64,000 bases of DNA from Myxococcaceae bacterium (GTDB lineage Bacteria > Myxococcota > Myxococcia > Myxococcales > Myxococcaceae). How positions within the stretch are numbered: position 1 is the stretch's first letter; every line of letters starts with the position of its first letter. Positions 3,060 through 62,234 of this stretch are shown in pieces. The stretch is taken from positions 3,498 to 67,497 of the forward strand of contig DASPUU010000137.1 in NCBI GenBank assembly GCA_035622755.1. Direction: 5' to 3'. Under the pieces are notes generated by a model. It did not search any database and was not told where the DNA came from. It was given only the letters and a program-made list of their open reading frames with translations. A program made the translations under genes and the position numbers.

Positions 3060-4391
3060 TCATGTCACCTGGAAGTCATAGACGGAGCCCAGCCGGAGGA
3101 TCCGCGTCAGCTCGTCCAGGGCCGTCATCCCCTCCCGGGCCAGCGCCGGATCACGGAGGTCCCCGGGGGCGAGGCGGTCCCGGTAGTGGCGGCCGACCCA
3201 GGCGGCCAGCTCGCGGTGGAGCGCCTCGTCGTAGAACACGCGCGCCTTGACCGCCGCGCGCTCGGCGTCGGTGAGCCGGATGCGCTGGCGCAGGCAGGCC
3301 GGTCCCCCGCCGTTGTTCATCGACTGGCGGACGTCCAGGTAGTGGATGGCCTCCACCGGATTGTCCTCGGACACCACGCGCTCGAGGAAGGCGCGCGCCC
3401 GCGGCCGCTCCCGCGACTCGACCGGGGCGATGATGGCCATCCTTCCCGACGGCAGGGTGACCACCTGGCTGTTGAACGGGTAGGCGGTCACCGCGTCGGC
3501 GACCGGGAGCTCGGCCTCGGTGGCCAGCGCCCAGGTCAGCCCCCCGCCCAGCCGGGCCCGGAGCGCGCCGAGGAGCTCCTCCGGCCCGGCGAAGGCGAGC
3601 GCGTGGAGCATGAAGAAGCCGTCGTTGCCCACCGCCAGGACGTCGGTGTGGAAGGCGCCGGCATCGATGCCGGCGGCCGACTGCCTGGGAAAGAAGCACT
3701 GCTCGGGGGACAGGCGGTGCAGGCGGGCCAGCGCCTCGGAGGCCTCGAGCGTCTGGCGCGCCGGGAAGCGCACCGGCTCGGGCCCCGGGCGGTAGGTGCT
3801 CCGCCCCCAGGCGAAGAGGTGGACCGCCGGGCGCCCGGGGACGGCGAGGCGGGTGTGGTTGGCCGCTCCCTCGTCGGCGAACTGGCCTCCGCCCGGGAGC
3901 GGGCCGTGGACCTGGAAGCGGCCCGGGTCGGCGAAGATGCTCGCCAGCACCGCCCGGGTGGTGTCCGCCTCGATGGCGCGGTGGAACATCGCCTGGAGGT
4001 TGGCCGGAGTGAGGTGCAGCCGGGCGTCCGCCGTGTCCTCCGAGGGGGCGGCGGTGGCGGCGTTGGCCGTCCACATCGCGGCTGCGCTCGAGCACAGCCG
4101 GAGGAGCTGCTCCGAGTCACGGGCTGCCCGGACGATGACCTCCTCGTCCGAGCCGGTGAAGCCCAGGGCCCGGAGCGTCCTCAGCGACGGGCGGGGCTGG
4201 GGGGGGAGCAGCGCCTGCCCCACGCCCAGCGCGGCGACGGCGCGCATCTTCTCCAGGCCCTGGAGCGCCGCCTGCCGGGGGTTGGAGACCTGGCCCTCGT
4301 GCGCCGCCGAGGCCAGGTTCCCGCGGGCCAGGCCGGCGTAGTTGTGCGTCGGCCCGACGAGCCCGTCGAAGTTGTACTCGCGCTGTGCCAT
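3060..4391 (-). CDS. astB: N-succinylarginine dihydrolase
   Basis: From MAQREYNFDGLVGPTHNYAGL... to ...LRLGSVYDFQVT. Collinear with AstB (NFDGLVG.TH.YAGLS, DEGAANH, FHNDV-like FHTDVLAV, MNNGGGPACLR). 443 aa from ATG at 4391 inside track ORF 3060..5459. Confidence 0.9.
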   Translation of the reverse strand: MAQREYNFDGLVGPTHNYAGLARGNLASAAHEGQVSNPRQAALQGLEKMRAVAALGVGQALLPPQPRPSLRTLRALGFTGSDEEVIVRAARDSEQLLRLCSSAAAMWTANAATAAPSEDTADARLHLTPANLQAMFHRAIEADTTRAVLASIFADPGRFQVHGPLPGGGQFADEGAANHTRLAVPGRPAVHLFAWGRSTYRPGPEPVRFPARQTLEASEALARLHRLSPEQCFFPRQSAAGIDAGAFHTDVLAVGNDGFFMLHALAFAGPEELLGALRARLGGGLTWALATEAELPVADAVTAYPFNSQVVTLPSGRMAIIAPVESRERPRARAFLERVVSEDNPVEAIHYLDVRQSMNNGGGPACLRQRIRLTDAERAAVKARVFYDEALHRELAAWVGRHYRDRLAPGDLRDPALAREGMTALDELTRILRLGSVYDFQVT

Positions 4392-4427
4392 AGACGGCCC
4401 GCTCCGCTCGCCGGAGACGTTTCCCAC

Positions 4428-5333
4428 GTGACGCCCCCCCTGGCCAAGCGCTTCAAGCGGACCCTCCGCTACGGGCTCCTCGTGGCCGCGCTCGCCGTGG
4501 TCTCGCGCCTCCCGCTCTCCTGGTCCCAGCGCGCCGGGGAGGTCCTCGGGGAGCTGGTCTTCCGCCTCGCCCGGGGCGAGCGAAGAAAGGCGCTGGAATC
4601 GCTGGGGCGGGCCTTTCCGGAGAAGAGCGACGAGGAGCGGGCGGCCCTGGCCCGCGCCTCGTTCCGGCACCTGGGCCGGTGCGCGCTCGAGGCGGCGGTG
4701 GCTCGCCGGGTGGGCCCGGCGGGCATCGGGCCGCTCCTGGAGCTCGGCGAGCCGGCCCTCTCGGTCGTGCGCCGGGCCCGGGAGGCGGGCCGGGGCATCG
4801 TCGCCGTCACCGGCCACGTCGGTCACTGGGAGCTGCTCGGCTGGGCGATGGTCCGGGGCGGAATCCCGCTGTCCGTCATCGCCCGGGAAAACGTCGACCC
4901 GAGGCTCACCTGGCTGGTGGACGACTTCCGCGCCCGCGGCGGAGTGCGCACGCTCTGGCGGGCGAACCCGGGGTCGGCGGTGGGGATGCTGCGCGCCCTG
5001 CGCCGGGGGGAGATGCTCGGCCTGCTCATCGACCAGGACACCCGCGTGCAGTCGGTGTTCGTCCCCTTCTTCGGGACCCTGGCCGCCACACCCCGGGCGG
5101 CGGCGGACCTCGCGCTCCGGACCGGGGCCGCGGCGCTGGTCACCTTCGCGCCGCGCGGCGCGGACGGGCGCTACCACGTCAGCGCCGAGGAGCTGAGGGT
5201 GCCCTCGAGCGGCGACGCCGAGGCCGATGCGCTCGAGCTGACCCGGGCATTCTCGGCGGCCATCGAGTCCGCCATCCGCCGGACGCCCGAGCAATGGGTG
5301 TGGATGCACCAGCGCTGGAAGACCCGGCCGTGA
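4428..5333 (+). CDS. lipid A biosynthesis (Kdo)2-lipid IVA acyltransferase family protein (LpxL/HtrB-like)
   Basis: C-terminal 301 aa of track ORF 3186..5333 from GTG 4428. N-terminal TM helix, H-x4-E acyltransferase motif (GHVGHWE), ...PEQWVWMHQRWK C-terminus typical of the family. Sits directly upstream of the lpt genes. Confidence 0.75.
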   Translation: MTPPLAKRFKRTLRYGLLVAALAVVSRLPLSWSQRAGEVLGELVFRLARGERRKALESLGRAFPEKSDEERAALARASFRHLGRCALEAAVARRVGPAGIGPLLELGEPALSVVRRAREAGRGIVAVTGHVGHWELLGWAMVRGGIPLSVIARENVDPRLTWLVDDFRARGGVRTLWRANPGSAVGMLRALRRGEMLGLLIDQDTRVQSVFVPFFGTLAATPRAAADLALRTGAAALVTFAPRGADGRYHVSAEELRVPSSGDAEADALELTRAFSAAIESAIRRTPEQWVWMHQRWKTRP

Positions 5334-7332: not shown

Positions 7333-8841
7333 ATGGCGATGGAACTCAAGCAGAACCTGAAGCTGATGCAGACGCTGGTGATGACGCCCCAGCTGCAGCA
7401 GGCGATCAAGCTTCTGCAGCTGTCTCACATGGAGCTCCTGGAGCAGGTGAGCCAGGAGATGGAGCAGAACCCGCTCCTCGAGCAGCCCGACGAGACGGTC
7501 GAGGGCGACCTGGCGGAGAAGGCCCCGGGCGAGGCCTCGCTCGAAGCGGCCACCGCCGAGGTCTCCACCGAGCAGCTGGCCAAGACGCCGGAGCGGCTCG
7601 AGGAGGTCAAGGGCGAGGACGGGCCCAACGAGATCGACTGGGACGCCTACCTCAACAGCTACCAGTTCAACGAGCCGAGCACGGCCAGCAACAAGGGCAA
7701 CGTGGCCACCGACGACCTCCCGTCGTTCGAGGCCAACCTGGTGGAGAAGGAGGACCTCCCCGCCCACCTCACCGCCCAGCTCAGCCTGCTCAAGCTCAAC
7801 GATGCCGAGCGCCGGGTGGCCCTGCTCATCCTCGGCAACCTGGACGACGACGGCTACCTCAAGCTCCCCGGCGTGGAGGGCGACCCGCTCATCCGGCTGG
7901 CCAGCGAGGCGGACGTCGACGTCTGCCTGGCCGAGAGGACCCTGAGGAAGATCCAGCACCTCGAGCCCAAGGGATGCGGGGCGCGCGACCTCCAGGAGTG
8001 CCTGCTCATCCAGGTGGCGTCGCTCAAGAACCCGCGCGCGCCCCTGCTCGGGACGATGATCAAGCGCCACCTCAAGGCGCTGGAGAGCAAGAACCTCCCG
8101 GCCATCGCCCGGGACCTCAAGCTCTCGCTCGAGGAGGTGGTGGAGGCCGAGCGGCTGCTGAGCAAGCTCGACCCGAAGCCGGGGCGGAACTACTCCGCCG
8201 ACGACGCGCAGTACATCACCCCGGACGTCTTCGTCTACAAGATGGCGGACGGCTACACGGTGGTGCTCAACGACGACGGGCTCTCCAAGCTGCGCATCAG
8301 CGGGGCCTACCGGAACGCGCTGCGGCGGGGGGGCATGGAGCCGGGGAAGGCCAAGGAGTTCATCCAGGAAAAGCTGCGGAGCGCCCAGTGGCTGATCCGC
8401 AGCATCCACCAGCGCCAGCGGACCATCTACAAGGTCACCGAGAGCATCGTGAAGTTCCAGCGCGAGTTCCTGGACAAGGGAATCGCCCACCTCCGCCCTC
8501 TCATCCTCAGGGACGTGGCCGAGGACATCGGGATGCACGAGTCGACGGTGAGCCGGGTGACGACGGCCAAGTACGTGCACACCCCGCAGGGCATCTACGA
8601 GCTGAAGTACTTCTTCAACTCCTCCATCGCCCGGGTGGCCGGGGAGGACATCGCCTCCGAGGCGGTGAAGAGCCACATCAAGCAGATCGTGTCCCAGGAG
8701 GACGCCAAGAACCCGCACTCCGACCAGCGCATCGTCGAGCTCCTGCGCGCGCAGGGCATCGACATCGCCCGGCGCACGGTGGCCAAGTACCGCGAGGTGC
8801 TCGGCGTCCTGCCCTCCGGCAAGCGCAAGCGGTACTACTGA
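7333..8841 (+). CDS. rpoN: RNA polymerase sigma-54 factor
   Basis: N-terminal region I (MELKQNLKLMQTLVMTPQLQQAIKLLQLSHMELLEQ), C-terminal HTH and RpoN box (ARRTVAKYRE). 502 aa. Confidence 0.95.
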   Translation: MAMELKQNLKLMQTLVMTPQLQQAIKLLQLSHMELLEQVSQEMEQNPLLEQPDETVEGDLAEKAPGEASLEAATAEVSTEQLAKTPERLEEVKGEDGPNEIDWDAYLNSYQFNEPSTASNKGNVATDDLPSFEANLVEKEDLPAHLTAQLSLLKLNDAERRVALLILGNLDDDGYLKLPGVEGDPLIRLASEADVDVCLAERTLRKIQHLEPKGCGARDLQECLLIQVASLKNPRAPLLGTMIKRHLKALESKNLPAIARDLKLSLEEVVEAERLLSKLDPKPGRNYSADDAQYITPDVFVYKMADGYTVVLNDDGLSKLRISGAYRNALRRGGMEPGKAKEFIQEKLRSAQWLIRSIHQRQRTIYKVTESIVKFQREFLDKGIAHLRPLILRDVAEDIGMHESTVSRVTTAKYVHTPQGIYELKYFFNSSIARVAGEDIASEAVKSHIKQIVSQEDAKNPHSDQRIVELLRAQGIDIARRTVAKYREVLGVLPSGKRKRYY

Positions 8842-18494: not shown

Positions 18495-19127
18495 ATGCCG
18501 TCCCGACCCTCCCGGCGACCGCGTCGCGACGACCTCGCCTTCGCCGACCCGGTCGCTCCCCAGTCCGAGGTGCCGCGTGCGGGCCTGGGCACGGACCGCT
18601 CCCGCCCCGGAGAGGTCGGGGTCGAGGAGCTGTCCTGGGCGCGGTTCGACGGTCTGGTCCAGGCCCTCGCCCGGCGCATTCGCCGGCGCTTCGCCCCGGA
18701 GGCGGTGGTCGGGGTCGCCCACGGCGGCGTCTTCGTGGGGGGAGCGATGGCCTCGGCGCTGGGCGCCGACTTCTTCCCGGTGCGCATCAGCCGCCGCAGC
18801 CGCACCGCCGCCCAGCCGCGCCGGAGCCCGCGCCTCGTCGGCAGCATGCCGCGGGAGCTGAAGGGCCGGCGCGTCCTGCTCGTCGACGACGTGGCCGCCA
18901 GCGGCGAGACGCTGAAGCTCGCCCGGAAGCTGGCCGCGCGGACCGGCGCGCGCGGGCTCTTCACCGCCACCCTGGTCGCCCGCCCGGGAGGTTACGCCCC
19001 CACCTGGTCGGCCCTGGAGAGCGACGCCCTCTTCGTCTTTCCCTGGGACTACGCCGCCGTCACCGAGGACGAGCGCTTCGACGCCGCCCGGGCTCCGGTC
19101 CCGGCCCGCCCGCGGAGGCGGGGATGA
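18495..19127 (+). CDS. phosphoribosyltransferase family protein
   Basis: PRPP-binding motif [14 protein letters not shown]. Start at ATG 18495 inside track ORF 18429..19127. Stop overlaps selB start (ATGA 19124-19127). Confidence 0.65.
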
Positions 19128-21049
19128 TCCTCGGGACGGCGGGCCACGTCGACCACGGCAAGACGTCGCTGGTGAAGGCGCTCACCGGCATCGATACCGA
19201 CCGGCTTCCCGAGGAGAAGCGCCGCGGCATCACCCTCGAGCTGGGCTTTGCCCACCTCGCGCTTCCCGGCGGGACGGTGGTGGGAGTGGTCGACGTCCCC
19301 GGCCACGAGCGCTTCGTCAAGGCGATGGCCGCCGGCGCCGGCGGCGTGGACCTGGTCCTGCTGGTGGTGGCCGCCGACGAGGGGGTGATGCCGCAGACGC
19401 GCGAGCACCTGGACATCTGCCAGCTGCTCGGCGTGCGCGCCGGGGTGGTGGCGCTGACCAAGGCCGACCTCCTCCCGGGGCTGGGAAGCGACTGGCGCGA
19501 GCTGCTCGAGGCCGACCTGAGCACGCTCCTCGCCGGGACGACCCTCGAGGAGGCCGAGGTGGTGGAGGTGTCCGCCCGCACCGGCGAGGGGCTCCCCCGG
19601 CTCCGGGAGGCGCTCGGCCGGGTGGCGTCCACGCTCGCCGCCCGGCCCGCCGATGGCCCTCTCTTTCTTCCGCTGGACCGGGCCTTCACCCTCAAGGGCT
19701 TCGGCACGGTGGTCACCGGCACGCTCCTCTCCGGAAGCGTCGCCCCGGAGGAGTCGGTGTCCCTGCTCCCCGGCCTCCCCGGGCCGTTCCGGGTGAGGAC
19801 CGTGCAGGTCCACGGCGCCCAGGTGCCGCGCGCCGCGGCCGGCCAGCGCACCGCCGTGAATCTGCCGTCGGTGGCGTCGGCCGACGTGAGCCGCGGCATG
19901 GTGCTCACCCGGGCCGGAGAGCTGCCCGAGACGCGGTCGCTGGACGTCGAGCTCACGCTGCTGCCGGCCGCGGAGGCGCCGCTCCCGCGGCGGCGGACGC
20001 TGCTCCTCCATCTCGGTACGGCCCAGGTCGAGGCGCGCGTGCGTCTGCTCGACGTGGACGCGCTCGCCCCGGGGGAGACGGCCCTGGCGCAGATCCGCAC
20101 CGCCGCGCCGGTGGCCGCCCTTCCCGGCCAGCGCTTCATCCTCCGCGGGCCGCGCCCGCTGCCCGGTCGAGGAGCGACGGTGGCCGGTGGCCGGGTCTTG
20201 ACGCTCGCCTCGCCGCGGCGCCGGCGCGGGGCGGCCGCGCAGCTCGAGCCGATGCGCAGCGGCGAACCCGAGGCGCGCGTGCGCTGGCTGCTCCGCCAGG
20301 CCGGCTACCGCGGGCTCGACATCCGGGAGCTCTTCGCCCGGGCGAGCCTGCCGACCAAGGCGCTGACCCGGACGCTGGAGGTGCTCTCCAGCCGCGGCGA
20401 GGCCCTCCTCGTCGACCGCGAGCGCCGGCTCCACGTCTCGGCGGAGGTCTTCCAGGGGCTCCTGGCCCGCGCCCTCTCCCTCCTCCAGGACTTCCACGAG
20501 CGTGAGCCGCTCAAGGACGGGCTCGGCCGGGAGGAGCTCCGGCAGCGTCTCTCGGCGACGCTCGAGCCGCGGCTCGGGGCGCGCATCGTCCACGAGCTGG
20601 TCGACCGGGGGCAGGCAGAGCTCGTCCCGCCGGACGGCATCCGGCTCAAGGGACGCGGCCGGAGCCTGACCCTGGGCGAGGAGGCGGCGCGCGCCAAGTC
20701 GGTCGGCGCCCTGGCCACCGCCGGGCTCGGGCCTCCGACGCTGGGCGAGCTCGGACAGAGCGTGGGGCTTCCCCCGGCCCGGGTGGCGGCGCTCCTCGAG
20801 GGCCCGGTGCGCGAGGGAACGGTGGTCAAGGTGACGGACGACCTCTACTTCCACCGGAGCGCGCTGTCCGAGCTGAGGACGCGGCTGCTCGCCCACCTCG
20901 CCGAGCACGGGGAGATCACCACCCAGGCCTTCAAGCAGCTGGTGGGACAGAGCCGGAAGTTCGTCATCCCGCTCTCGGAGTACTTCGATCGCGAGAAGGT
21001 GACCCTCCGCCTGGGCGAGCGGCGCGTGGCGCGCGGAACGCCTCGCTGA
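19124..21049 (+). CDS. selB: selenocysteine-specific translation elongation factor SelB
   Basis: [16 protein letters not shown] (G1), DVPGHERF (G3), TKADL (G4). 641 aa with winged-helix C-terminal part typical of SelB. Confidence 0.9.
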
Positions 21050-21098
21050 AGGGACCGTCCGCCGAACCGGACAGCAAGCCCGGTGAGCGGCCAGGCGT

Positions 21099-21111
21099 TG
21101 CAGAATCTGCA
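21099..21111. promoter_or_regulatory. perfect palindrome TGCAGAATCTGCA, candidate enhancer (UAS) site
   Basis: 13-bp palindrome ~100 nt upstream of the sigma-54-type -24/-12 element. Confidence 0.35.
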
Positions 21112-21206
21112 GCGCTCGAATGAAGCGCGATGAAACTCCTGCGTGTGTACGTCTTCATCCGACTCTGTAAGCGGGCGAAATGACGCACCTGTCGAATGTG
21201 GACGCG

Positions 21207-21222
21207 TGGCACGTGACTCGCT
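21207..21222 (+). promoter_or_regulatory. sigma-54 (-24/-12) type promoter candidate
   Basis: TGGCACGTGACTCGCT versus consensus TGGCACG-N4-TTGCW. The -24 half is perfect, there is one mismatch in the -12 half, and the GG-N10-GC spacing is correct. Intergenic, locally AT-richer. Confidence 0.6.
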
Positions 21223-21231
21223 ATAGAACGC

Positions 21232-21352
21232 CCCGGGCGCGAGGTTCGCCGTTCTGGGTCGGTTCCCCCCCACCGGCCCACGCGGGAGACCACGCGCTGT
21301 CTGAAGTCCCTGTGGCCCGGCGTCCCTTCGGGATTGCCGGGCTACTTTTTTT
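21232..21352 (+). ncRNA. candidate sigma-54-dependent small RNA (~120 nt; ends approximate)
   Basis: Bounded by the -24/-12 promoter and an intrinsic terminator. Internal stem-loop 21256-21279 with loop UCCCCCCC. No ORF and no downstream + strand gene. Confidence 0.45.
21315..21352 (+). terminator. intrinsic terminator (hairpin + T7)
   Basis: GCCCGGC (21315-21321) pairs with GCCGGGC (21336-21342), with an inner TCCC/GGGA stem, then TAC + TTTTTTT (21346-21352). Overlaps the stop and last codons of the convergent methyltransferase gene. Confidence 0.7.
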
Positions 21353-22091
21353 CCGGCTCCGCGCGTGCCGTGCGCGCCCAGAGGCGGAGGCCGACGGGGC
21401 GGAGCGTGCCGGCGGCGATGCGGTGCAGCTCGGCGGTGAGCACCCAGCGCGCGATGCGCGCCGCGTGCCGGGACGGCTCGAGCTGTCCAGCGATGGAGCG
21501 ATGGAGGTACGGCCCGCGGGCAGTGCCGAGGAGCTCGAAGCGGCCGGCGAGCGCGGCCCGCATCGCGCACCCCCGGTGCAGGGGTGGATCCCCGGCGTGC
21601 TCGGCCTCCCACCGCGCGAGCGGATCGTCCTCGTCCGAGCCATGCGCCACCTCCCTGCGGAGGAGGCCGGCCGCGCCGAGCAGCCCCTGGAGGTCGTACA
21701 GCCAGCGCAGGGTCTCGCGGTCCGGGGCGTCGAGGTCGAAGTCGGCGGCGGCGAGGAGGCCGCCCGGACGGAGCAGCCGCCCGGCGTTCTCCAGCGCGCG
21801 CTCGAGCGGAAACAGGTGGTGCAGCGACGCGGAGAAGACCAGCGCGTCGAAGGGAGCGTCCTCGAAGCCGAGGAAGTCCGCCTCGACGAAGCGGACGGGC
21901 GCGGCGCGCTCCGTCCCGGCCAGCGAGCGATCGACGGCGGTCACCTCGAAGCCGTCGGCGGCGAGGCGCCGGGCGAGGAGGCCGTTGCCGCAGCCGACCT
22001 CGAGCACGCGCCGGCAGCCGGAGAGGAGGGGCGCGAGGAAGCGGTGCGTCTCCTCGACCACCACTTCCGCGGGGCGCGCGTCCTCTCGCAC
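21342..22091 (-). CDS. class I SAM-dependent methyltransferase
   Basis: Motif I VLEVGCGNGLLARRLA, motif post-I EVTAVD. 249 aa. Confidence 0.8.
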   Translation of the reverse strand: MREDARPAEVVVEETHRFLAPLLSGCRRVLEVGCGNGLLARRLAADGFEVTAVDRSLAGTERAAPVRFVEADFLGFEDAPFDALVFSASLHHLFPLERALENAGRLLRPGGLLAAADFDLDAPDRETLRWLYDLQGLLGAAGLLRREVAHGSDEDDPLARWEAEHAGDPPLHRGCAMRAALAGRFELLGTARGPYLHRSIAGQLEPSRHAARIARWVLTAELHRIAAGTLRPVGLRLWARTARAEPEKK

Positions 22092-22129: not shown

Positions 22130-23356
22130 TCAGCGGCCGAGCGCGCGGACCGCCTCGCGCCGGACCTCGGGATCGGCATCGGACGTCGCCGCGCGGAGGG
22201 CGGCCCGGGCGGCCGGCGACTCGAGGCGGGCCAGGGCCCGGGTGGCCGCCCGGCGCACCTCGCGGACGCGATCGCCGAGCGCAGCCGAGAGGGCCTGGGC
22301 GGTCCGGGGATCTCGGATCTCCCCCAGCGATTCGGACGCGGCGGCGCGCACCCGGGGGTCGGCATCCACCGTGGCCCGGACGAGCGCGTCGACGGCGCGC
22401 GCGTCTTCGAGGCCTCCCAGGGCTGCGGCGCCCTCGGCCCGCACGCGTGCGTCCGGGTCCGAGAGGCAGAGGACCAGCGCCTCGAGGGCCCGGGCGTCCT
22501 CGAGGCGAGCCAGCGCCTCCACCACCGACAGGCGGACGTCCGCGTCGGCATCCTTCATCCGGGCGAGGAGCGCCGGGGTCGTCTCGCGCTCGCCGATTTC
22601 CCCGAGCGCCTCGGCCGCCGCGGCGCGGACGCCGGCCTCGTCGCTTCCGAGCTGCTCGACCAGGACGCCGAGCGCGCGGCGATCTCCGAGGCCTCCGAGC
22701 GCGGCCACCGCCGCCCGGCGCACCCGCCCATCGACGTGCCCGGCGGCCACCAGCAGCGACGGGACGGCCCGCGCATCCCCGGTGGAGCCGAGCGCCCAGG
22801 CGGCGGTGGCGGCCACCGCAGCATCCGGGTCGCGGAGCGCGCCCTCGAGGAGCTCGCGGACGTCGGGGTCCTCGCGCTCGCCGAGCCCGAACGCCGCGGC
22901 CTGGCGCTCGCCGGGCTGGCCGGCGCGCAGCGCGGCCCGGAGCCGGGCCATGGCCTCCGGGCTCTCGGTGCGCCCGAGCAGCCCGGCGGCCATCCGGCGG
23001 ACGCAGGCGCTCGAATCTCCCAGATGCCCGGCGAGCAGCGCCACGGCGTCCGGAGCGGTGACCGGACCGGTGAGCGCTCGTTCCAGCGAGTGCGCCGCGC
23101 CGTCCTCCACCGGCGAGCCGTCCCGGCGGCCGCCGGAGAGCCCGGCCAGGACCGCGTCGGCGGCCAGCGCGCAGGCCAGCGGGTCGGAGCGGCCGAGCGC
23201 GTCGAGCAGCGGCTGGAGCTGGGCCGCCGTCGGCCCGGGCACGGTCCCGCTCCGGTGCCGCCCGGCGTGGGCGGTGATGGCCCGGGCGAGGGCCGCCGGA
23301 GGAGCCAGGAGGATGAGCCCGAGCAGGGGAAGTGCAGGGGCCAGCCGGGCGACCAT
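22130..23356 (-). CDS. secreted HEAT-repeat protein
   Basis: Start ATG 23356 overlaps the upstream stop (ATGA). Signal peptide MVARLAPALPLLGLILLAPPAALARA. Multiple PBS-lyase-type HEAT repeats (D..VR..AA.ALG...D.RA...L). C-terminal 408 aa of track ORF 22130..24982. Confidence 0.7.
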   Translation of the reverse strand: MVARLAPALPLLGLILLAPPAALARAITAHAGRHRSGTVPGPTAAQLQPLLDALGRSDPLACALAADAVLAGLSGGRRDGSPVEDGAAHSLERALTGPVTAPDAVALLAGHLGDSSACVRRMAAGLLGRTESPEAMARLRAALRAGQPGERQAAAFGLGEREDPDVRELLEGALRDPDAAVAATAAWALGSTGDARAVPSLLVAAGHVDGRVRRAAVAALGGLGDRRALGVLVEQLGSDEAGVRAAAAEALGEIGERETTPALLARMKDADADVRLSVVEALARLEDARALEALVLCLSDPDARVRAEGAAALGGLEDARAVDALVRATVDADPRVRAAASESLGEIRDPRTAQALSAALGDRVREVRRAATRALARLESPAARAALRAATSDADPEVRREAVRALGR

Positions 23357-25944
23357 CACTCCCTCTGGCCGAGCGCCTCGGCGGCGGCCCTGCGGACGGC
23401 CGGGTCCTTGCTCTGCATGGCGGCGATGAGCGCCTGGAGCGCGCCCGAGTCGCGGATGCGCGAGAGGGCCTCCACCGCCTGCTCGCGCACCTCGGCGTTC
23501 GGGTCGTCGAGGAGGGGCTTCAGCGCCGAGACGGCGGTCGCCGAGGTCGACGGGTCCTTCAGCTGCCCCAGCGCCGAGGCGGCCAGGGCGCGGACGTCCG
23601 CGTTGGCGTCGCGGGTCGCCTCGATGAGGGCCGGGACGGCCTTCGCCGAGCCGATGCGCGCCAGGGCGCGGACGGCCAGCTGGCGCACGCGCGCGTTGTC
23701 GTCCTTGAGCGCCGCGGTCAGGGCGGGGAGGGCGGAGGGGTCGCGCAGGTCGCCCAGGGCCCGGACCGCGGTGGCCCGCACCTCGGGCGAGGGATCCTTC
23801 ACCAGCGCCGACAGGGGCTGGAGGGCGCGCTTGTCCCCGCGGTGGGCGAGGCCGGCCACGGCCTCCAGCCGGACGCGCACGTCGGAGTCGCCCAGCGCCC
23901 CGACCAGAGGCTCGACCGTGGCCGGCACGTCGTCCATGCCGGCCAGCGCCTCGGCGGCCTGGCGGCGGACGCCGGGATGGGCATCCTTGAGCGCCCGCGC
24001 CAGGGCGGGGACGCTCGCCGGGTCGTCGAGCCGGGCCAGGGCCTCGATGACCGCCACGCGCACCTTGACGTCGGAATCGCCGAGCGCCGCGGCGAGGCCC
24101 TCGAGCGCTCGCGGGTCCCGGAGCCGGCCGAGCGACTGGGCCGCCGCCTGGCGGACGCCCGCGTCGGAGTCCTTGAGGGCCTTCACCAGCGCATCGACGG
24201 TGGCCGGATCGGCCGCGGCGCTCGGCTTGTGCCCGTGCCGCACGTTGACGCGGACCGCTTCCGCCTGGGCGCGCGCCGCCTCGGCCTCGGCCCGCGCGGA
24301 CTCGGCCTGCGCCAGGGCACGCTCGCGGGCGGCCTCGGCCTTTCCTTCGGCCTTGGCTCGCTCGAGCTCGGCGCGGGCCCGGGCCATCTCTGCCTGCACC
24401 TCGGCGGTGCCCTCCGCCGCCCAGGCCACCGCCACCGGGGCCGGCGGTGCTGGAGGGGCGGGCGGCGCCGCAGGAGCACGGGGTGCGACCGGCGCGACCG
24501 GGGCCGGCGGTGCTGGAGGGGCGGGCGGCGCGGCGGGCACCTCGGGGGCCGGGGGGACGGGCGCGAGCTGCGCGACGACGAGCGGCGTCGGGCCCTGCTT
24601 CTTCACCAGCGCCCAAACGTGGCGCTTCACCTCGGGATGCGAGTGCACGGGGGCTGCCACGTCCTGCGCGGCGGCGGCCGAGGCGACGGGAGCAGGGGCG
24701 GCGGCCGGCGCGGCCACCGGCGCAGGCGTGGCCCGGGCCGTCGCCGTGTCGCCGGCGAGCGCCCACTCCGCCTCGAACCAGCCGATGGCCGGCGCAGCCC
24801 GGACGCCCGGGACCAGGACGATGCACAGGAGGAGCACCAGGGCCAGCGCCCCGGCGTGCCAGGAGCGCTTGGGCTCGAGCGCGACGCTCGAGGAGAGCAG
24901 GCGCTCCACCCGCTCGACGAGCTGGCTCGGGCGCTCGGCCATCCCGGCCAGCGGGACCAGGCGCTCCTCGCCGTCGAGCCACCGGGCCACCGTCGCCAGC
25001 CCGCGGGCGATGGGCAGGCCCGAGCCGTCGCGAGTCGCGGCCCAGTCGTCGCAGAGGTACTCGGCGACCTCCTGCATGTTCCGGCGGGCGACCCGGTTCA
25101 GCGGCTGGAAGAAGAGGAGCTGCTCCAGGGTGGTCGCGAGCAGGAGCCAGAGCGGATCCCTTCGCTCCAGGTGGGCCAGCTCGTGGGCGAGGACGCTCCG
25201 CTGCTCGGCCGGGTCGAGCTCGGTGAGCACCGCCGCCGGGATGCAGATCTCCGACCAGCCCAACGCCACCGGGCTCTTGAGGCCCTCGGCGGTGGTCAAC
25301 CGGACCGGGCGCCCGGCACGGGAGTCGGTGCAGAGCCGGTCCAGGGCGGCGCGCAGGCGCTCGTCGGCCACCGGCCGGCGCAGCCCGAGCCGCTCGAGGA
25401 CCCGCGTGCGCACCACCGCCAGCCGGAGCAGCAGCACCGAGGCCACCGCCACCCAGGCCATGAAGAGCAGCGAGCTCGCCCGCACCTCCGGGATGTCCAC
25501 CGACGAGGACGCGATGGGAGCCGGCGGCGCGGTGGGAAGCGCATCCCGCTCGTCGCCGGGAAGGGCGAGCGGGGGCAGCACCGGCTCCGGCCCGGGCGTC
25601 CCGGGGACGGGCGGGATGGCCGCCGGGTCCTGCACCTCCGGCTCCCGGGAAGGCGGGGGGAGCCCGAGCGAGGGTGCCTCCGCGGCCGGGGACCGGGCGG
25701 AGTCGAGCGACAGCCCCCAGGGCGCAAGCCCGGCGGCCATCTGGATGGTGGCGGTGAACAGCGCACCGACCAGGGCCGCCCGCCAGACGAGGTCGCGCAG
25801 GCGGAGCGAGCCGAACAGGCCGCTCCTCTGGGCGAGCCAGGCTCCCCCGATGAGCGCCGTGGAGTGAAAGGCGTAGGTGAGCAGCCAGGCCGCGCCGACG
25901 GCCGAGAGCGTCTGGCCCCAGCGAACGAGGTCAGCGGTCGTCAT
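23356..25944 (-). CDS. M56-family (BlaR1/MecR1-like) membrane metalloprotease fused to coiled-coil and HEAT-repeat domain
   Basis: TM helices; HEXXH = HELAH (AHELAHLERRD) with downstream FFQPLN; further TM; Pro/Ala linker; Ala/Glu coiled coil; ~9 HEAT repeats. 862 aa. Confidence 0.8.
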   Translation of the reverse strand: MTTADLVRWGQTLSAVGAAWLLTYAFHSTALIGGAWLAQRSGLFGSLRLRDLVWRAALVGALFTATIQMAAGLAPWGLSLDSARSPAAEAPSLGLPPPSREPEVQDPAAIPPVPGTPGPEPVLPPLALPGDERDALPTAPPAPIASSSVDIPEVRASSLLFMAWVAVASVLLLRLAVVRTRVLERLGLRRPVADERLRAALDRLCTDSRAGRPVRLTTAEGLKSPVALGWSEICIPAAVLTELDPAEQRSVLAHELAHLERRDPLWLLLATTLEQLLFFQPLNRVARRNMQEVAEYLCDDWAATRDGSGLPIARGLATVARWLDGEERLVPLAGMAERPSQLVERVERLLSSSVALEPKRSWHAGALALVLLLCIVLVPGVRAAPAIGWFEAEWALAGDTATARATPAPVAAPAAAPAPVASAAAAQDVAAPVHSHPEVKRHVWALVKKQGPTPLVVAQLAPVPPAPEVPAAPPAPPAPPAPVAPVAPRAPAAPPAPPAPPAPVAVAWAAEGTAEVQAEMARARAELERAKAEGKAEAARERALAQAESARAEAEAARAQAEAVRVNVRHGHKPSAAADPATVDALVKALKDSDAGVRQAAAQSLGRLRDPRALEGLAAALGDSDVKVRVAVIEALARLDDPASVPALARALKDAHPGVRRQAAEALAGMDDVPATVEPLVGALGDSDVRVRLEAVAGLAHRGDKRALQPLSALVKDPSPEVRATAVRALGDLRDPSALPALTAALKDDNARVRQLAVRALARIGSAKAVPALIEATRDANADVRALAASALGQLKDPSTSATAVSALKPLLDDPNAEVREQAVEALSRIRDSGALQALIAAMQSKDPAVRRAAAEALGQRE
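24434..24531. repeat. in-frame direct repeat (35-nt identical core, 63-nt period) inside the M56 gene
   Basis: ACCGGGGCCGGCGGTGCTGGAGGGGCGGGCGGCGC occurs at 24434-24468 and again at 24497-24531. Encodes the duplicated AAPPAPPAPPAPVA linker. Confidence 0.85.
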
Positions 25945-26332
25945 CGGTCCCCTCCGGACCCGCCTCGGCGCGGGCGATGAGGTCGCGCACCCGGTCCAGG
26001 TCTCCAGGCCGGATGGCCTTCGGGTCGAGCAGATGGCTCATCAAGGCCGAGACGTCGCCGCCGAAGAGCGTGTCGGTCAGCCCGCTCACCATCGACGCGC
26101 GCACCTCCCCCTCGGAGACGCAGGCCCGGTAGACGTATTGCCGCGCCCGGGTGGTGTGGGTGACGGCGCGCCGCTTCTCCAGGCGGCTGAGGAGGGTGGC
26201 GACGGTGGTGGGGGCGAGCTCCCGCTCGGGGCGGAGCGCCTGGACCACCTCGGCGACCGTCGCCGTCCCCTGCTTCCAGAGGACGCGGAGGATGGCGAGC
26301 TGGAGGTCGGTGAGCTGCGTGGCTTCGGTCAT
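25931..26332 (-). CDS. BlaI/MecI/CopY-family transcriptional repressor
   Basis: Winged-helix N-terminus (LTDLQLAILRVLWKQGTATVAEVVQAL...TTVATLLSRLEKRRAV). GGAG 6 nt before ATG 26332 (track ORF extends to GTG 26359). 3' end overlaps the M56 gene start. Confidence 0.8.
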   Translation of the reverse strand: MTEATQLTDLQLAILRVLWKQGTATVAEVVQALRPERELAPTTVATLLSRLEKRRAVTHTTRARQYVYRACVSEGEVRASMVSGLTDTLFGGDVSALMSHLLDPKAIRPGDLDRVRDLIARAEAGPEGTDDDR

Positions 26333-26354
26333 GCGGGGCTCCGGGGCTGACTTC

Positions 26355-26386
26355 GACACCTGTAATACTACGACTGTAGACGTGTC
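26355..26386. promoter_or_regulatory. candidate BlaI-type operator (imperfect palindrome with TGTA/TA-A half sites)
   Basis: GACACCTGTA-N12-TAGACGTGTC (8 of 10 arm positions complementary), with inner CTAC-N4-GTAG. AT-rich island directly upstream of the repressor gene. Confidence 0.45.
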
Positions 26387-35426: not shown

Positions 35427-35451
35427 CATCCGACGAGTTTTGAGGAACGCC

Positions 35452-36822
35452 ATGAACACGCAGAGGGCGCCCATCACCCGCGACACGGTGAGCGGAGAGG
35501 CGTTGTTCATTCTCAAGAATCTCCGGGAGAACAGCCGGCTCGGGCGCTCGAACAAGCTGGCCGACGTCAAGACGGCCCTCGAGCCCGCCGTCTCCCTGGA
35601 GTTCGACGCGTACTTCTTCTTCCTCCGGAAGTTCCACTACATCGCCATGGATCGCGAGGCCCAGCTGCGGCTGACCGACACCGGCGAGCGGGTGGTGGAG
35701 GGCAACGAGCTGGACCGCTTCAGCGGTGAGGTGGGGGAGTTCTTTTCCGAGCAGCTGGGCTCGTCCGATGAGCCGATCGGGCCCTCGTACCCCGTCGTCG
35801 AGGTGGAGCCGGTGGTCTCCATCTCGGAGCACGTCACCTTGGAGAGCTCAGTGTCCCAGCCCCCTCCCTCCTCGAGCACCCCCGCTCCGCGCCCCGCTCC
35901 GCGTCGGGCCTCCACCGCGGTCGACGGGCTCCAGGCCGTGGACGGGCGCCCCTCCGCCGCCCCGAGCAAGGCGGGCGACGGCGACCTGCGCTACACCAAG
36001 TTCGACGCCATCGGCTCCGGCCCGCTGGGGACGGTCTACAAGGGCCGGCAGAACAGCCTGGGGACGGAGGTGTCGATCAAGGAGCTGAAGGACATCTTCG
36101 GCTACTTCTCCTTCCTGCAGCGCTCGGACGTGGTGAAGCGGCTCAAGACCGAGCTCTGCGCCCAGGCCCAGGTCCGCCACCCCGGGGTGGTGACCATCCT
36201 CGACCAGAACACCGACGTCGGCCGCCCCTACGTGGTGATGGAGCTCCTGCGCGGCAACCTGCGCGAGCGCCTGGACCAGTCGGCCGGCAAGGGCCTCCCG
36301 GTGGCCCAGGCGATGCGGACCTTCCTCCAGCTCGCCTACGGGCTCCGCGCCGCGCATGCCCAGGGCCTCACCCACCAGAACATCAAGCCGGAGAACGTCC
36401 TCTTTGACGGCTACGGGAACGCCAAGCTCGGCGACTTCGGCCTGAGCCGGGTCATCGAGATCGAGTCCGGCAAGGGCATGCCCCAGGTCTACGTGGGGAC
36501 GGGCTCGCTCAGCTACCTGGCCCCGGAGCTGATCGTGAAGGCCAAGGATGCCGGGGCGGCGGCGGACGTGTACGGGCTGGGCATCCTCCTCTACGAGATG
36601 CTCACCGGCGGCATCCCCGGCCGGCGCTCGCCGCTCCCCTCCGAGGTGCGCAGCGAGGCGCCGAGCAAGCTCGACCCCATCTTCGACAAGATGACCCACG
36701 ACCGGCGAGAGGCCCGCTACCCGGACTTCGACGCCATGCTCGAGGAGTTCTACGGCGCCTTCAGCGACGGGGAGTACCTCGGGCGCGGCGACCTGGTCCT
36801 CTCCTCCGAGCCGCTGCGCTGA
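35452..36822 (+). CDS. Ser/Thr-kinase-fold protein, predicted pseudokinase (HRD replaced by HQN), with unknown N-terminal domain
   Basis: GAGGAA 5 nt before ATG 35452. Gly loop IGSGPLGTVYKG, VSIK Lys, DFG, APE present. Catalytic loop reads LTHQNIKPENV (codons 36373-36381). Confidence 0.75.
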   Translation: MNTQRAPITRDTVSGEALFILKNLRENSRLGRSNKLADVKTALEPAVSLEFDAYFFFLRKFHYIAMDREAQLRLTDTGERVVEGNELDRFSGEVGEFFSEQLGSSDEPIGPSYPVVEVEPVVSISEHVTLESSVSQPPPSSSTPAPRPAPRRASTAVDGLQAVDGRPSAAPSKAGDGDLRYTKFDAIGSGPLGTVYKGRQNSLGTEVSIKELKDIFGYFSFLQRSDVVKRLKTELCAQAQVRHPGVVTILDQNTDVGRPYVVMELLRGNLRERLDQSAGKGLPVAQAMRTFLQLAYGLRAAHAQGLTHQNIKPENVLFDGYGNAKLGDFGLSRVIEIESGKGMPQVYVGTGSLSYLAPELIVKAKDAGAAADVYGLGILLYEMLTGGIPGRRSPLPSEVRSEAPSKLDPIFDKMTHDRREARYPDFDAMLEEFYGAFSDGEYLGRGDLVLSSEPLR

Positions 36823-37364
36823 CCGACCCGGAGGAGGCCGTCCGCTCCGGGCTGGCCCGCTTTCACCTCGGGGAGTTCCACGGGGCGCACGAGGCCTGGG
36901 AGGACGGATGGCGAGCCGCCTCCGGTCCGGAGCGTGACCTTCTCCAGTCGCTGGTCCAGCTCGCCGCCGCTTTCCACCAGTGGAGCCGGCCCAAGCCTGG
37001 CGGCGCGGCGCGGCTCCTCGCCCGGGCCCGGGTCCGGCTCGCCACCCTGCCGAGCGCGCTCCTCGGCATCGACGTCGCCGAGCTCGAGCTGCGGCTCGCC
37101 GGCTGGGGAGAGGCGGCGGCGCGCGGCGACCCGGTTCCCGCCTCGCCGCGCGTGCCGGACGGGACCTCGGGGCCGCTGCCCGATTCGGCCCGGCGCGCGC
37201 GCTGCCCGTACTGCGGCGAGTGGGTGGAGGTGCAGGTCGAGCCCGTGGGCGCAGCCGAGGAGCGCTACGTCGAGGACTGCCCGGTGTGCTGCCGGCCCTG
37301 GACGGTGCGGGTGAGCCGCGACGGCGCCCGGGTCGGCGTGGCGCTCGGCCGGGAGGACGACTGA
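36819..37364 (+). CDS. DUF309-like domain fused in frame to a CPXCG zinc-ribbon-like module; start codon uncertain
   Basis: Frame reads ...GLARFHLGEFHGAHEAWEDGWR...LLQSLVQLAAAFHQWSRPKPGGAARLLARA (DUF309 pattern), then RCPYCGEWVEV...EDCPVCCRPW (CPXCG). No ATG/GTG/TTG in frame before GTG 37152. CTG 36819 overlaps the upstream TGA. Confidence 0.45.
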   Translation: MTDPEEAVRSGLARFHLGEFHGAHEAWEDGWRAASGPERDLLQSLVQLAAAFHQWSRPKPGGAARLLARARVRLATLPSALLGIDVAELELRLAGWGEAAARGDPVPASPRVPDGTSGPLPDSARRARCPYCGEWVEVQVEPVGAAEERYVEDCPVCCRPWTVRVSRDGARVGVALGREDD

Positions 37365-37573
37365 GCGCCCCCCCGGGGGCCGGTCGCACGGGAGAGCCCA
37401 CCCCGGAGCCGCTCGCCGGAGGCGGCGGGCCCTGCGAGCTCACGACGGATCACGGGAGATTTCGGCCAGTTGAGCCGGGAGGAACCGGCCCAGGGCCGTC
37501 GGCCGGGGCAGGAGGGCGCGCCGGCACCGGCCCGGCAATGAACGGCCCCGAAAGGCGTAGTGCACAGTCAGAC

Positions 37574-38074
37574 ATGCTGCGCACCGCTGCCCTTTCCGTT
37601 CTCCTTTTGGCCGCTCTCTCCCCGGGCGCCGCCCGGGCCCTCGACGTCAGCGCCGACTGCACCATCGACGCCAAGCCGGGCGACGTGGTGGCCAAGGGCC
37701 GGGACGTGGTGGTCGACGCCAACAAGCGCGTCAACGACGTGGTGGCCGTCGACGGCAACGTCACCCTCCGCAAGGGCGTCCACGCCAAGAGCGTCATCGC
37801 GGTGAACGGCTCGGTCACCCTCGAGGCCGGGGCCAAGGTGACCGGCAGCGCCATCTCGTTCGGCGGGAAGGTCAAGGTCGCCCCCGACGCCAAGGTCGAG
37901 GGGAGCCGGCTCGAGCTCGGCGACGGCATCCACATCAAGAACGAGGACGGCAAGGACGTCTCGCTCGACTTCTCCATCGGCGGCGAAGGTCTGGGTCAGC
38001 TGCTGGCCGGGAAGATCAGCGGCGCGGCACGCAACTGCCGCATCGTGGAGCAGCCGGACGGCGGCACGAGGTAG
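37574..38074 (+). CDS. secreted hypothetical protein with beta-solenoid-like V/G/D-rich repeats
   Basis: Signal peptide MLRTAALSVLLLAALSPGAARA (ATG 37538 is an alternative start). Repetitive ..V.A.G.V.V.. segments (DVVAVDGNVTLRKGVHAKSVIAVNGSVTLEAGAKVTGSAISFGGKVKVAPDAKVEGS). Confidence 0.55.
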   Translation: MLRTAALSVLLLAALSPGAARALDVSADCTIDAKPGDVVAKGRDVVVDANKRVNDVVAVDGNVTLRKGVHAKSVIAVNGSVTLEAGAKVTGSAISFGGKVKVAPDAKVEGSRLELGDGIHIKNEDGKDVSLDFSIGGEGLGQLLAGKISGAARNCRIVEQPDGGTR

Positions 38075-38084
38075 CCGCGTCGGC

Positions 38085-39821
38085 TCAGCGCCCGGGCGAG
38101 ACCCCGGGAGGCTGGTAGGGCGGGCTGACGACCAGCGCGGGCTCGAGCTCCAGGGCGACCCGCATCTCCGCCCGCGCCTTCTCCGCCCACTCCTCCTGAT
38201 GGCTCGGGCCGCCTTGCTCGATGAACATCGCCTGGCGCGTGTAGGCGGTGGCCAGCCAGGCATGGGCCAGCGCATAGTTGGGATCGAGCGCCAGGGCCTT
38301 CTGAAACTCGGCGATCGCCTCGAGATTCGTCCCGGCATCGGCCCCCTGCTCCGACCTCGCGGCCGCCGCCCACTGCTCGGCCTGGGAAACCCCGCGCAGG
38401 TAGTGGTCGTAGGCGTCCGGGCTGGACGTCGAGCCGCGCTTCAGGCGGGTGCCGTCCGCGGTGGTCAGCTTGAGGGCCAGCGCGCTGGCCACCTTCGCCC
38501 CCACGTCGCGCTGGACATCGAGCACGTCCTTGGCTTCGAGGTCGTACACCTCGGCCCACAGGTGTCTCTCCGTCCGGGCGTCGATGAGCTCGGTGGCGAT
38601 CCGGATCCGGCTCCCGACGCGCCGGACGCTCCCGTCGAGGATGGTGGCCACCCCCAGCTCGGATGCGATCTGCCGGATGGGCTTCCCTGCTCCCCGGTAG
38701 ACCCCGGTGGAGGTGCGCGAGAGGACGCGGAGACCGGGCACCTTGGCCAGCTGGATGAGGATGTCCTCGGTGAGACCGGCGCTGAAGTAGTCGTCGGCCG
38801 GGGAGCCGCTGAGGTTGGTCAGCGGCAGGACGGCGATGCTCTGCGGGTCGACGAGCTCGAAGGCGCGGGCCGGTCGGGAGCGGTAGGCGACGATGGCGCC
38901 GCCGGCGGCGAGGGCGACCACCAGCCCGAGGACCAGGCCGGTGGCGAGCCGGCGGCCGCGGCGCTCCAGCGCCGGGACGAGCTCGAGCGGGTCCGCGGTC
39001 CGCTTCCGAAGGTCCGGCTCCAGCGCGCGCCGCAGCGGCGCCGCCCACCCCCGCGGGACATCCTCGAGCATGCCAGGGTCCGGAATCCGCCCGGTGACCA
39101 TCTCGTGCGCGACCAGGCCCAGGGCGTAGACGTCCGTCCGCGGGCTCACCTCCGCGCCGGCGCGCTGCTCGGGTGCCATGTACGCCGGGCTTCCGACCAC
39201 CGCACCCGCCTCGGTGCCAGGCCATCCCGTGTCACCGCCCTCGGTGCGGGCGGGGCGGGCGATGCCGAAGTCCGTGACCACCGCCCGGAGCCGGTCGCGC
39301 TCGTGGACGAGGATGACGTTGCCCGGTTTGAAATCCCGGTGGATCAGATCCTTGGTATGGATGGCGGCCAGTCCCCGGGCCATCTGGTCGAGCAGGGGCA
39401 GCGCCTCCCGGGGCGAGAGCGGCCCCTTCCGCAGCCGCTCGGCGAGCGTCTCGCCGTCGAGGAACTCCATGGTGATGAACGCCAGCGGCCTCCCGTCCGG
39501 GCCGGGGCCCTCGTGAAAATCGAAGAGCCGGCAGACGTGGGGATGGGTCACGGCGCGGGCGAGCTGAACCTCGCGCCGCAGGCGCTCCAGAAGCTCGGCC
39601 CCGGCGCCGGTCGAGGTGCGGATCGTCTTCAGGGCGACGGTGACGTGCAGCCGGAGGTCGCGCGCCTCGTAAACCTCCCCCATTCCCCCGCGGCCCACGA
39701 GCCGCGCGAGCTTGAACCGTCCGAGCAGGACGTCGCCCGGGCACTGGGGAGAGACGTCGGTGGGTGGCTCCCCCCTCACCGTCCCGGTGACAGGCTCGGT
39801 CTCCCGTGAATCGTCGGGCAT
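38085..39821 (-). CDS. transmembrane Ser/Thr protein kinase, paralog 1 (short TPR tail)
   Basis: Kinase motifs GRGGMGEVY, VALK, HRDFKPGN, DFG, APE. One TM helix. Periplasmic IAVLPL.NLSGSP.DDYF...DGSVRR.GSRIRI...LIDA..E..LWAE.YD module. Only one short TPR-like stretch. 578 aa. Confidence 0.85.
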   Translation of the reverse strand: MPDDSRETEPVTGTVRGEPPTDVSPQCPGDVLLGRFKLARLVGRGGMGEVYEARDLRLHVTVALKTIRTSTGAGAELLERLRREVQLARAVTHPHVCRLFDFHEGPGPDGRPLAFITMEFLDGETLAERLRKGPLSPREALPLLDQMARGLAAIHTKDLIHRDFKPGNVILVHERDRLRAVVTDFGIARPARTEGGDTGWPGTEAGAVVGSPAYMAPEQRAGAEVSPRTDVYALGLVAHEMVTGRIPDPGMLEDVPRGWAAPLRRALEPDLRKRTADPLELVPALERRGRRLATGLVLGLVVALAAGGAIVAYRSRPARAFELVDPQSIAVLPLTNLSGSPADDYFSAGLTEDILIQLAKVPGLRVLSRTSTGVYRGAGKPIRQIASELGVATILDGSVRRVGSRIRIATELIDARTERHLWAEVYDLEAKDVLDVQRDVGAKVASALALKLTTADGTRLKRGSTSSPDAYDHYLRGVSQAEQWAAAARSEQGADAGTNLEAIAEFQKALALDPNYALAHAWLATAYTRQAMFIEQGGPSHQEEWAEKARAEMRVALELEPALVVSPPYQPPGVSPGR

Positions 39822-60914: not shown

Positions 60915-62234
<1,320 letters not shown>

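Follow-up and report, generated by a model that had tools for sequence, protein, structure and literature searches.

The 64,000-nucleotide stretch of DNA analysed here, called the window throughout, comes from a Myxococcaceae bacterium (contig DASPUU010000137.1 of assembly GCA_035622755.1), and this work concerns the gap between its selB gene and a convergent S-adenosylmethionine (SAM)-dependent methyltransferase gene, in which lies a small RNA (sRNA) gene related to Pxr. An earlier note, made from the letters alone, had read the gap as the seat of an orphan, sigma-54-dependent sRNA, and every sequence feature that it listed was found in place by a direct check. Both flanking genes that it named were confirmed by Pfam, and the gap is locally AT-richer as it had noticed, with a GC content of 0.59-0.64 versus 0.75-0.80 in the flanks. 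The features of the locus are as follows (class B and model R1 are defined below).

19124-21049, + strand: selB, the synteny anchor (Pfam SelB domains; tblastn synteny)
21098-21112, no strand: upstream dyad TTGCAGAATCTGCAG, containing the palindrome TGCAGAATCTGCA (21099-21111), ~130 nt upstream of the predicted start
21143-21174, no strand: conserved upstream block GTGTGTACG...ATCCGAC...TGTAAGCG, common to most class B lineages
21199-21204, + strand: -35-like hexamer TGGACG, invariant in 14/14 class B lineages
21207-21222, + strand: sigma-54-type -24/-12 element TGGCACGTGACTCGCT, GG-N10-GC, with one mismatch in the -12 half
21222-21227, + strand: -10-like hexamer TATAGA, overlapping the -12 element; TATA(G/A)A in 14/14 class B lineages
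21235-21352, + strand: Pxr-family sRNA gene, class B (Rfam match, model R1, 14-lineage conservation)
21255-21280, + strand: apical part of stem-loop 1 (hairpin 21256-21279), with the exposed UCCCCCCC loop at 21264-21271
21299-21312, + strand: single-stranded linker GUCUGAAGUCCCUG, nearly invariant and unpaired in the class B consensus
21312-21352, + strand: stem-loop 3, an intrinsic terminator, GUGGCCCGGCG...UGCCGGGCUAC and then U7 (fold, terminator search, conserved pairing)
21342-22091, - strand: convergent SAM-dependent methyltransferase gene (Pfam), its last 11 nt overlapping the sRNA terminator

Taken as a whole, the reading that we regard as highly probable is that positions 21235-21352 of the + strand encode a trans-acting sRNA of ~118 nt, which would be a divergent positional orthologue of Pxr; the results below demonstrate that the gene is there and is conserved, and establish its structure, homology and synteny. 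At the Rfam gathering thresholds, that for Pxr (RF01812) being 80 bits, the whole window gave zero matches, and a permissive local scan of the region returned a match to the full-length Pxr model at 21246-21353 (31 bits, E=0.0013) that reproduces the 14-nt loop motif GGUUCCCCCCCACC exactly. Together with the reciprocal model, the loop motif and the synteny, this match refutes the earlier view of the RNA as an orphan, since it is a homologue of Pxr; what stood of that view is the stand-alone gene of ~120 nt with its predicted start, C-rich loop hairpin and terminator, which recurs in 14 lineages with pair-preserving substitutions. Neither the strict nor the permissive scan matched the Vibrio Qrr or enterobacterial GlmY families in the window. 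The RNA at 21232-21352 has a folding energy of -67.3 kcal/mol (z = -4.6), with 0/200 shuffles as stable, and a small protein-coding open reading frame in the gap is unlikely, the long frames there being high-GC artefacts that fail the codon-position GC filter.

Related loci, numbered with the prefix L, were gathered by a pattern scan of species-representative genomes (39 loci), by one metagenome scan and by look-ups of flanking-protein orthologues; the metagenome pattern scan gave 4 loci, 3 of them duplicates of the window or of L001, and the SelB-based look-ups yielded more. Identical sequence occurs in the JGI soil metagenomes from which L047 and L049 derive. Three classes, A, B and C, were defined among the loci with the common 14-nt loop motif. 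Class A is canonical Pxr, present in Myxococcus, Pyxidicoccus, Archangium and some metagenome-assembled genomes (MAGs), with TGGCAC-N5-CTGCT ~55 nt ahead of the loop motif. The window's sRNA belongs to class B, which comprises 14 distinct lineages, all uncultured, while class C occurs in many MAGs labelled Myxococcaceae (L007, L012, L013, L020, L024, L031, L034-L036, L039, L041, L042). The Rfam Pxr scores form a graded series from Myxococcus (L040, 129 bits) through a deep-branching, pxrR-linked pxr (L014, 5304-5407, 58.8 bits) and class C (42-43 bits) to class B (31-32 bits). The L014 copy is canonical by context, with pxrR directly upstream and a TGGCAC-N5-CTGCT promoter. Because this bona fide pxr fails the cutoff as well, the cutoff is conservative, and the curated Rfam model therefore overlooks deep-branching members.

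In the reverse direction, model R1, a covariance model made from the 14 sequences of class B, picks up class C with 65-71 bits (E about 1e-13) and 15 canonical class A copies with 46-54 bits (258 kb; E about 1e-8 to 1e-10), so that the model matches between the window's RNA type and Pxr are significant both ways; on seven chance-hit loci it recovered nothing. The window holds a single match of this model (122.8 bits), the only Pxr-type copy there. Two classes were never found in one genome among the pattern-scan hits, a weak indication that the classes replace one another. Model R1 also recovered four tandem Pxr copies on one Archangium MAG contig (L023, 5532-6507, - strand), consistent with the published tandem paralogues of Cystobacter, where three were reported. 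Two records titled Comamonas sp. KCTC 72670 (L015) and Proteobacteria bacterium (L010) carry a canonical pxr and, in addition, a pxrR 95-97% identical to that of Myxococcus sp. Y35, and are apparently mislabelled or contain contaminating Myxococcus DNA.

SelB identity to the window is 81-87% in class B genomes, 72-75% in class C genomes and 65-70% in cultured Myxococcaceae/Archangiaceae, and a crude SelB neighbour-joining tree without bootstrap gave the order (deep class A, (cultured class A, (class C, class B))). Within class B, L050 and the window's subclade B1 (window, L001, L046) branch first, in an unresolved mutual order. The host is an uncultured lineage near Myxococcaceae/Archangiaceae.

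By tblastn, the canonical order selB-(pxrK)-pxrR-pxr on one strand was found in L014, L016, L008 and M. xanthus (L026); in L014, selB lies at 1858-3768, pxrR at 3783-5153 and pxr near 5318. The sRNA directly follows selB, with no pxrR between, in 14/14 class B loci, so its place is not the canonical one right after pxrR (nla19) and before the NADH dehydrogenase gene, and the wider selB-...-pxr synteny is kept. Judged by this selB-linked order across classes A, B and C, the window's sRNA is the positional orthologue of pxr. Downstream, the neighbour varies among class B loci (methyltransferase, DUF374, CarboxypepD_reg or HEAT protein), and because of this variation the antisense overlap with the methyltransferase 3′-end, which the earlier note had pointed out and which is indeed present over 11 nt, is not conserved and is incidental. 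The methyltransferase was also rejected as the anchor of the sRNA: loci of its orthologues without an adjoining selB (L004, L005) lack the element, which therefore travels with selB and not with the methyltransferase.

The class B consensus structure consists of a long stem-loop 1 (SL1), whose 5′ end pairs with the region that forms stem-loop 2 (SL2) in canonical Pxr, a conserved single-stranded linker and the terminator stem-loop (stem-loop 3, SL3). Among the 14 lineages 98.4% of cells are paired, versus 38-44% with partners slid, and nearly all variation preserves pairing. Across the three classes 97.1% of cells are paired and 18/31 pairs show compensatory changes, with a covariation score of 0.50 versus 0.21 for shuffled alignments, none of the 500 shuffles reaching 0.50. 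All members of classes A, B and C, the window's sRNA included, have the 14-mer GGTTCCCCCCCACC without a change, and the SL1 hairpin, 100% paired with compensatory changes, exposes the C-rich loop UUCCCCCCCA as in Pxr. Pxr of M. xanthus cannot do without the SL1 loop and is inactivated when the fifth loop base is changed from C to A (PMC5684412); by analogy, the SL1 tip with the UCCCCCCC loop, the functional core of Pxr, would have that role in the window's RNA as well. At the position of the linker, a GAAG-N-CC(C) core is found in classes A and C too.

SL3 is an intrinsic terminator, a GC-rich hairpin directly followed by a U-tract (T7 at 21346-21352), with pair-preserving changes in 14/14 lineages, and it is the sole terminator-like site within 20500-22000. 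Its GGCCCGGC/GCCGGGC core corresponds to the 8-bp SL3 segment that is conserved in Pxr (Rfam alignment; PMC5684412) and is needed for accumulation of that RNA (PMC5684412). In the window GGCCCGGC and GCCGGGCU form seven Watson-Crick pairs and one G-U pair, and across 32 distinct sequences the core positions are invariant or undergo only G-C/G-U exchange. As a separate observation, in the cross-class alignment fitted to the model (A3, columns 2-10 with 61-70) canonical Pxr too can form the basal helix of class B SL1 (95.5% paired, 8/9 pairs compensatory), provided that ~10 nt upstream of the Rfam start are included; canonical Pxr-L may thus have a longer 5′ end and a long-range helix outside Rfam's model.

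Several observations weigh against the identification as Pxr, or against parts of the account given for its expression. The window's sRNA falls below the curated cutoff (31 versus 80 bits), as does the canonical L014 copy. The short SL2 of Pxr is missing, its region pairing with the 5′ end to extend SL1, and an SL2-like hairpin that is locally possible in the window sequence is not conserved across class B. The cross-class alignment behind the covariation score is biased towards pairing, having been fitted to the model. In TATAGA the final T usual in sigma-70 -10 elements is absent, and no GAFTGA or Walker A activator signature was found in the six frames of the 64 kb.

Two core promoters overlap upstream of the RNA. 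In 14/14 class B lineages TGGACG is followed after exactly 17 nt by TATA(G/A)A, then by variable sequence and then by the conserved RNA block; the combined motif TGGACG-N17-TATAGA occurs once in the window, and we infer from its hexamers and spacing that the pair is of sigma-70 type. The sigma-54-type box TGGCACGTGACTCGCT has the TGGCAC-N5-TCGCT form with correct spacing. Both promoters predict a start at 21233-21236, and the conserved RNA block begins at 21235. The sigma-54-dependent promoter claimed by the earlier note was borne out in so far as the box is real, rare and at the canonical position; against the claim, it is intact in 3/14 class B lineages (window, L001 and L046) as opposed to 14/14 for the sigma-70-type pair. 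It is present in all class A loci. In the comparison of class B orthologues the stems proved conserved and the -24/-12 element proved intact only in B1. Sigma-54 dependence in the window is plausible; across the class B clade the sigma-70-type promoter most likely drives expression, and in the window itself the overlapping sigma-70-type promoter and the sigma-54 box are equally likely as the driver.

About 100 nt upstream of the sigma-54 box lies the dyad, which had been put forward as an activator site. It is positionally conserved after a AAGCAGGC block in most class B lineages, and its sequence drifts between them, reading TGCAGAATCTGCA in the window, TGCAGATTCTGCA in L046, TGCAAATTCTGCG in L001, TGCAGAAAATTGCGCA in L006, TGCGGAATTTTGCGCA in L054 and TGCA-N8/9-TGCA in L018, L045 and L053. 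The window contains 173 perfect 5+3+5 palindromes and 51 perfect 6-N19-6 repeats, so that neither the palindrome nor the second inverted repeat of the earlier note counts as a stand-alone signal; the palindrome carries weight only because of its conservation, not its rarity, and the GATGAA-N19-TTCATC repeat (21129-21159), though present, is not conserved and is incidental. The dyad half-sites resemble those of the class A dyads TTGCAG-N3-TGCAA/TGAAA with a spacing 1 nt different, and the L050 dyad has the class A spacing. The dyad is also kept in lineages without a sigma-54 box, which makes it, on the evidence of its conservation, a regulatory element and putative regulator-binding site, possibly an enhancer, and not evidence for sigma-54 dependence. 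It was rejected as a PxrR site: the half-sites are alike, but the spacing is 1 nt off that of class A and the dyad occurs without the box. Between the dyad and the core promoter, the conserved block at 21143-21174 holds a loose direct repeat TGT(A/G)NGCG.

How the sRNA is transcribed admits two alternatives of comparable standing. That it is mainly or only transcribed by sigma-54 from the 21207-21222 box, with an enhancer-binding protein at the 21098-21112 dyad, is a serious possibility that we rate somewhat short of even. The box is correctly spaced and positionally homologous to the canonical pxr sigma-54 promoter, starting 54 nt upstream of the loop motif versus 55 nt in canonical pxr; TGGCAC-N5-(T/N)(T/N)GCW has 2 sites per 64 kb versus ~0.2 expected from composition; and the box is 15/16 identical among the window, L001 and L046, versus 45% three-way identity of the surrounding intergenic DNA. 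Since B1 branches among the earliest groups of class B, and class A likewise has a sigma-54 promoter, the box may plausibly have been retained from the ancestor, and near-intact remnants in L050 (TGGCGC..TGACT) and L006 (TGACAC..TGGTT), which look decayed, suggest gradual decay elsewhere. The dyads of B1 come in tandem, with TGCA/TGAA half-sites as in class A. An rpoN gene for sigma-54 is present at 7333-8841 (+ strand; Pfam Sigma54_AID, Sigma54_CBD, Sigma54_DBD), ~12 kb upstream of the sRNA, and PxrR is essential for canonical Pxr synthesis (PMC10217877). Against this, pxrR is missing at the locus, the activator signatures are absent from the 64 kb as described, and no Sigma54_activat domain occurs among 20 large window open reading frames; a PxrR protein search is uninformative for class B genomes, its best 120 matches (at least 72% identity) all lying in class A-type contexts. 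Moreover, 11/14 lineages keep the sRNA without a usable GG-N10-GC, L025 retaining the spacing with a poor -24 box (GGGCGA) and eight lineages, all but L025, L050 and L006, having neither GG nor GC in register, so the RNA is evidently expressible without sigma-54. The TGGACG/TATAGA pair is intact in the window too, and the dyad both persists without the box and differs by 1 nt in spacing from the class A sites.

A second box of sigma-54 type, TGGCACGTGCGGTGCT, was observed at 60884-60900 (+ strand), 31 nt upstream of a response-regulator/histidine-kinase hybrid gene (60915-62234), and has the CGTGGCACGTG core in common with the sRNA promoter. The idea that one activator serves both sites was set aside, the site at 60884 having no similar upstream dyad.

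The other alternative, which we hold to be just as credible and likewise not quite an even bet, is that the sRNA is made solely from the sigma-70-type TGGACG-N17-TATAGA promoter, the sigma-54 box being a relic or a chance product of a constrained spacer. It is favoured by the invariance of the -35/-10 pair and of the 17-nt spacing in 14/14 lineages, by the analogous pair TTGTCA-N17-TATCTG of class C and by the absence of an activator gene at the locus and in the 64 kb. The spacer is also conserved within other subclades (e.g. L018, L045, L053), therefore spacer conservation alone is no proof of sigma-54 use, and the ancestral spacer was, judging from L025, ~3 substitutions from TGGCAC. However, a relic is not expected to stay 15/16 identical in 45%-identical surroundings, the box, placed precisely at the canonical position, matches both consensus halves, and TATAGA is without the conserved -7 T.

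Returning to the Pxr orthologue with two overlapping promoters, the most economical reading of these sequences would be a history of four steps: a PxrR/sigma-54 arrangement in the common ancestor, loss of pxrR from the locus and gain of a sigma-70-type promoter in the class B/C lineage, repeated decay of the sigma-54 box and, finally, an intact box left in the window's subclade alone. The promoter appears to be shifting from the sigma-54 to the sigma-70 type. We tentatively propose, as one possible account, that Pxr was uncoupled from PxrK/PxrR across the clade, with the window's lineage representing an intermediate that would retain a functional sigma-54 box together with its enhancer, under an activator encoded elsewhere and overlapped by a newer sigma-70-type promoter, and with sister lineages that would have wholly lost sigma-54 input. 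Mechanistically, transcription would start at ~21233-21236 from the two overlapping core promoters, the sigma-54 box perhaps adding, in the window, a regulated input from an activator encoded elsewhere and the upstream dyad binding a regulator. The RNA would then fold into SL1 with its UCCCCCCC tip and the terminator with the Pxr SL3 core, separated by the single-stranded linker.

It is improbable that the RNA arises instead by read-through from selB and 3′ processing, as a promoterless sRNA derived from the 3′ untranslated region. The stretch from the selB stop (21049) to the sRNA terminator is free of terminator-like sites. Transcripts of selB therefore probably run on to the sRNA terminator and stop there, which makes read-through into the sRNA likely, and Pxr is known in the processed forms Pxr-L and Pxr-S (PMC10217877). 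Yet read-through cannot account for the strongly conserved promoter-like elements, whose distance to the RNA block downstream is fixed in every lineage. From TATAGA to the block the sequence varies, as would be expected of a start region, and in classes A and C selB and the sRNA have other genes between them, so the family is independent of selB transcription. Least of all do we credit a cis element, either an antisense regulator or shared terminator for the methyltransferase or a SelB-binding element in the 3′ region of selB: the terminator does overlap the last 11 nt of the methyltransferase gene and class B loci without exception have the element downstream of selB, but a cis-antisense role is unlikely with a neighbour that changes among class B loci, methyltransferase orthologues without adjoining selB lack the element and the minus-strand hairpin has no following U-tract, while a SelB-binding element, or one like the selenocysteine insertion sequence (SECIS), is unlikely because ancestral synteny with pxr explains the selB link, and the C7 loop is not known to resemble bacterial SECIS loops.

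The window's sRNA can therefore be set beside known RNAs. Vibrio Qrr and enterobacterial GlmY are, like it, stand-alone sRNA genes with a -24/-12 promoter; they have upstream activator sites, for which the dyad is the candidate here, and GlmY has overlapping sigma-54 and sigma-70 promoters, a parallel to the architecture proposed here; their activators, LuxO and GlrR, differ. Neither is known to have sequence or structural homology with the window's sRNA. The analogy to sigma-54-dependent sRNAs that the earlier note had drawn is nevertheless closer than it supposed, as the RNA is homologous to Pxr, itself a known sigma-54/PxrR-dependent sRNA (PMC5568312, PMC10217877). Pxr is the best-studied sRNA controlling bacterial multicellular development. 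It blocks fruiting-body development of Myxococcus while nutrients are abundant, has a predicted sigma-54 promoter, needs the NtrC-like PxrR (Nla19) encoded directly upstream, and is thought to have originated at the base of Cystobacterineae (PMC5568312, PMC5684412, PMC10217877). With Pxr of M. xanthus and other Cystobacterineae (RF01812), the window's sRNA has in common the GGUUCCCCCCCACC motif at the SL1 tip, a similar length, the GGCCCGGC/GCCGGGC terminator core with its U-tail, the single-stranded GAAG-N-CCC linker, a -24/-12 box at equal distance upstream and a place downstream of selB on the same strand. By analogy, we infer that it may exert negative control of fruiting-body development. 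It differs in its SL1 stem sequences, which are entirely different with pairing maintained by compensatory changes, in the pairing of the SL2 region with the 5′ end in place of the short SL2, in the extra sigma-70-type -35/-10 pair and in downstream genes that are neither pxrA nor the NADH dehydrogenase gene. Nor do pxrK/pxrR lie upstream, which contradicts the published statement that they do so in all species examined (PMC5684412).

Class C resembles the window's sRNA in the loop motif, in a nearly identical terminator stem-loop (GUGGCCCGGCGUCC...GGAUUGCCGGGCUGC in class C), in the absence of an adjacent pxrR and in a promoter of sigma-70 geometry. It differs in an SL1 stem that resembles canonical Pxr (CUGAAGA...CUUCAG), in its -35 element (TTGTCA, within TTGTCA-N17-TATCTG), in a GGAAATTTCC / GATGGAAATTTCC palindrome ~36 nt upstream of that element and in a TetR/ABC-transporter cassette of ~4 kb between selB and the sRNA. 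No description of class C Pxr-like sRNAs was found in the literature searched.

In the published view, Pxr always stands behind its own sigma-54 activator genes pxrK/pxrR and has co-evolved with them, whereas classes B and C are two further Pxr classes without pxrK/pxrR at the locus and with different core promoters. Because both score under the Rfam threshold, they escape current annotation, which is a practical argument for rebuilding Rfam's Pxr model on a broader seed. If confirmed, they would extend the known Pxr family, would show that what is conserved at its core is not the regulatory context but the C7 loop, linker and SL3 stem, and would offer a natural series for the rewiring of input to a developmental checkpoint RNA; should the uncoupling from PxrK/PxrR prove true, this would be a natural series of sigma-factor rewiring in an RNA that controls multicellular development.

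Two further features of the neighbourhood were observed. At 23356-26359 (- strand) the window encodes a BlaR1-type M56 peptidase fused to long HEAT repeats, beside a BlaI-type repressor, a pair kept near the sRNA in loci of both class B and class C. Farther downstream, three Ser/Thr protein kinase genes are clustered within 35440-42265 (35440-36822, + strand; 38085-39821 and 39884-42265, - strand), such clusters being typical of myxobacterial genomes.

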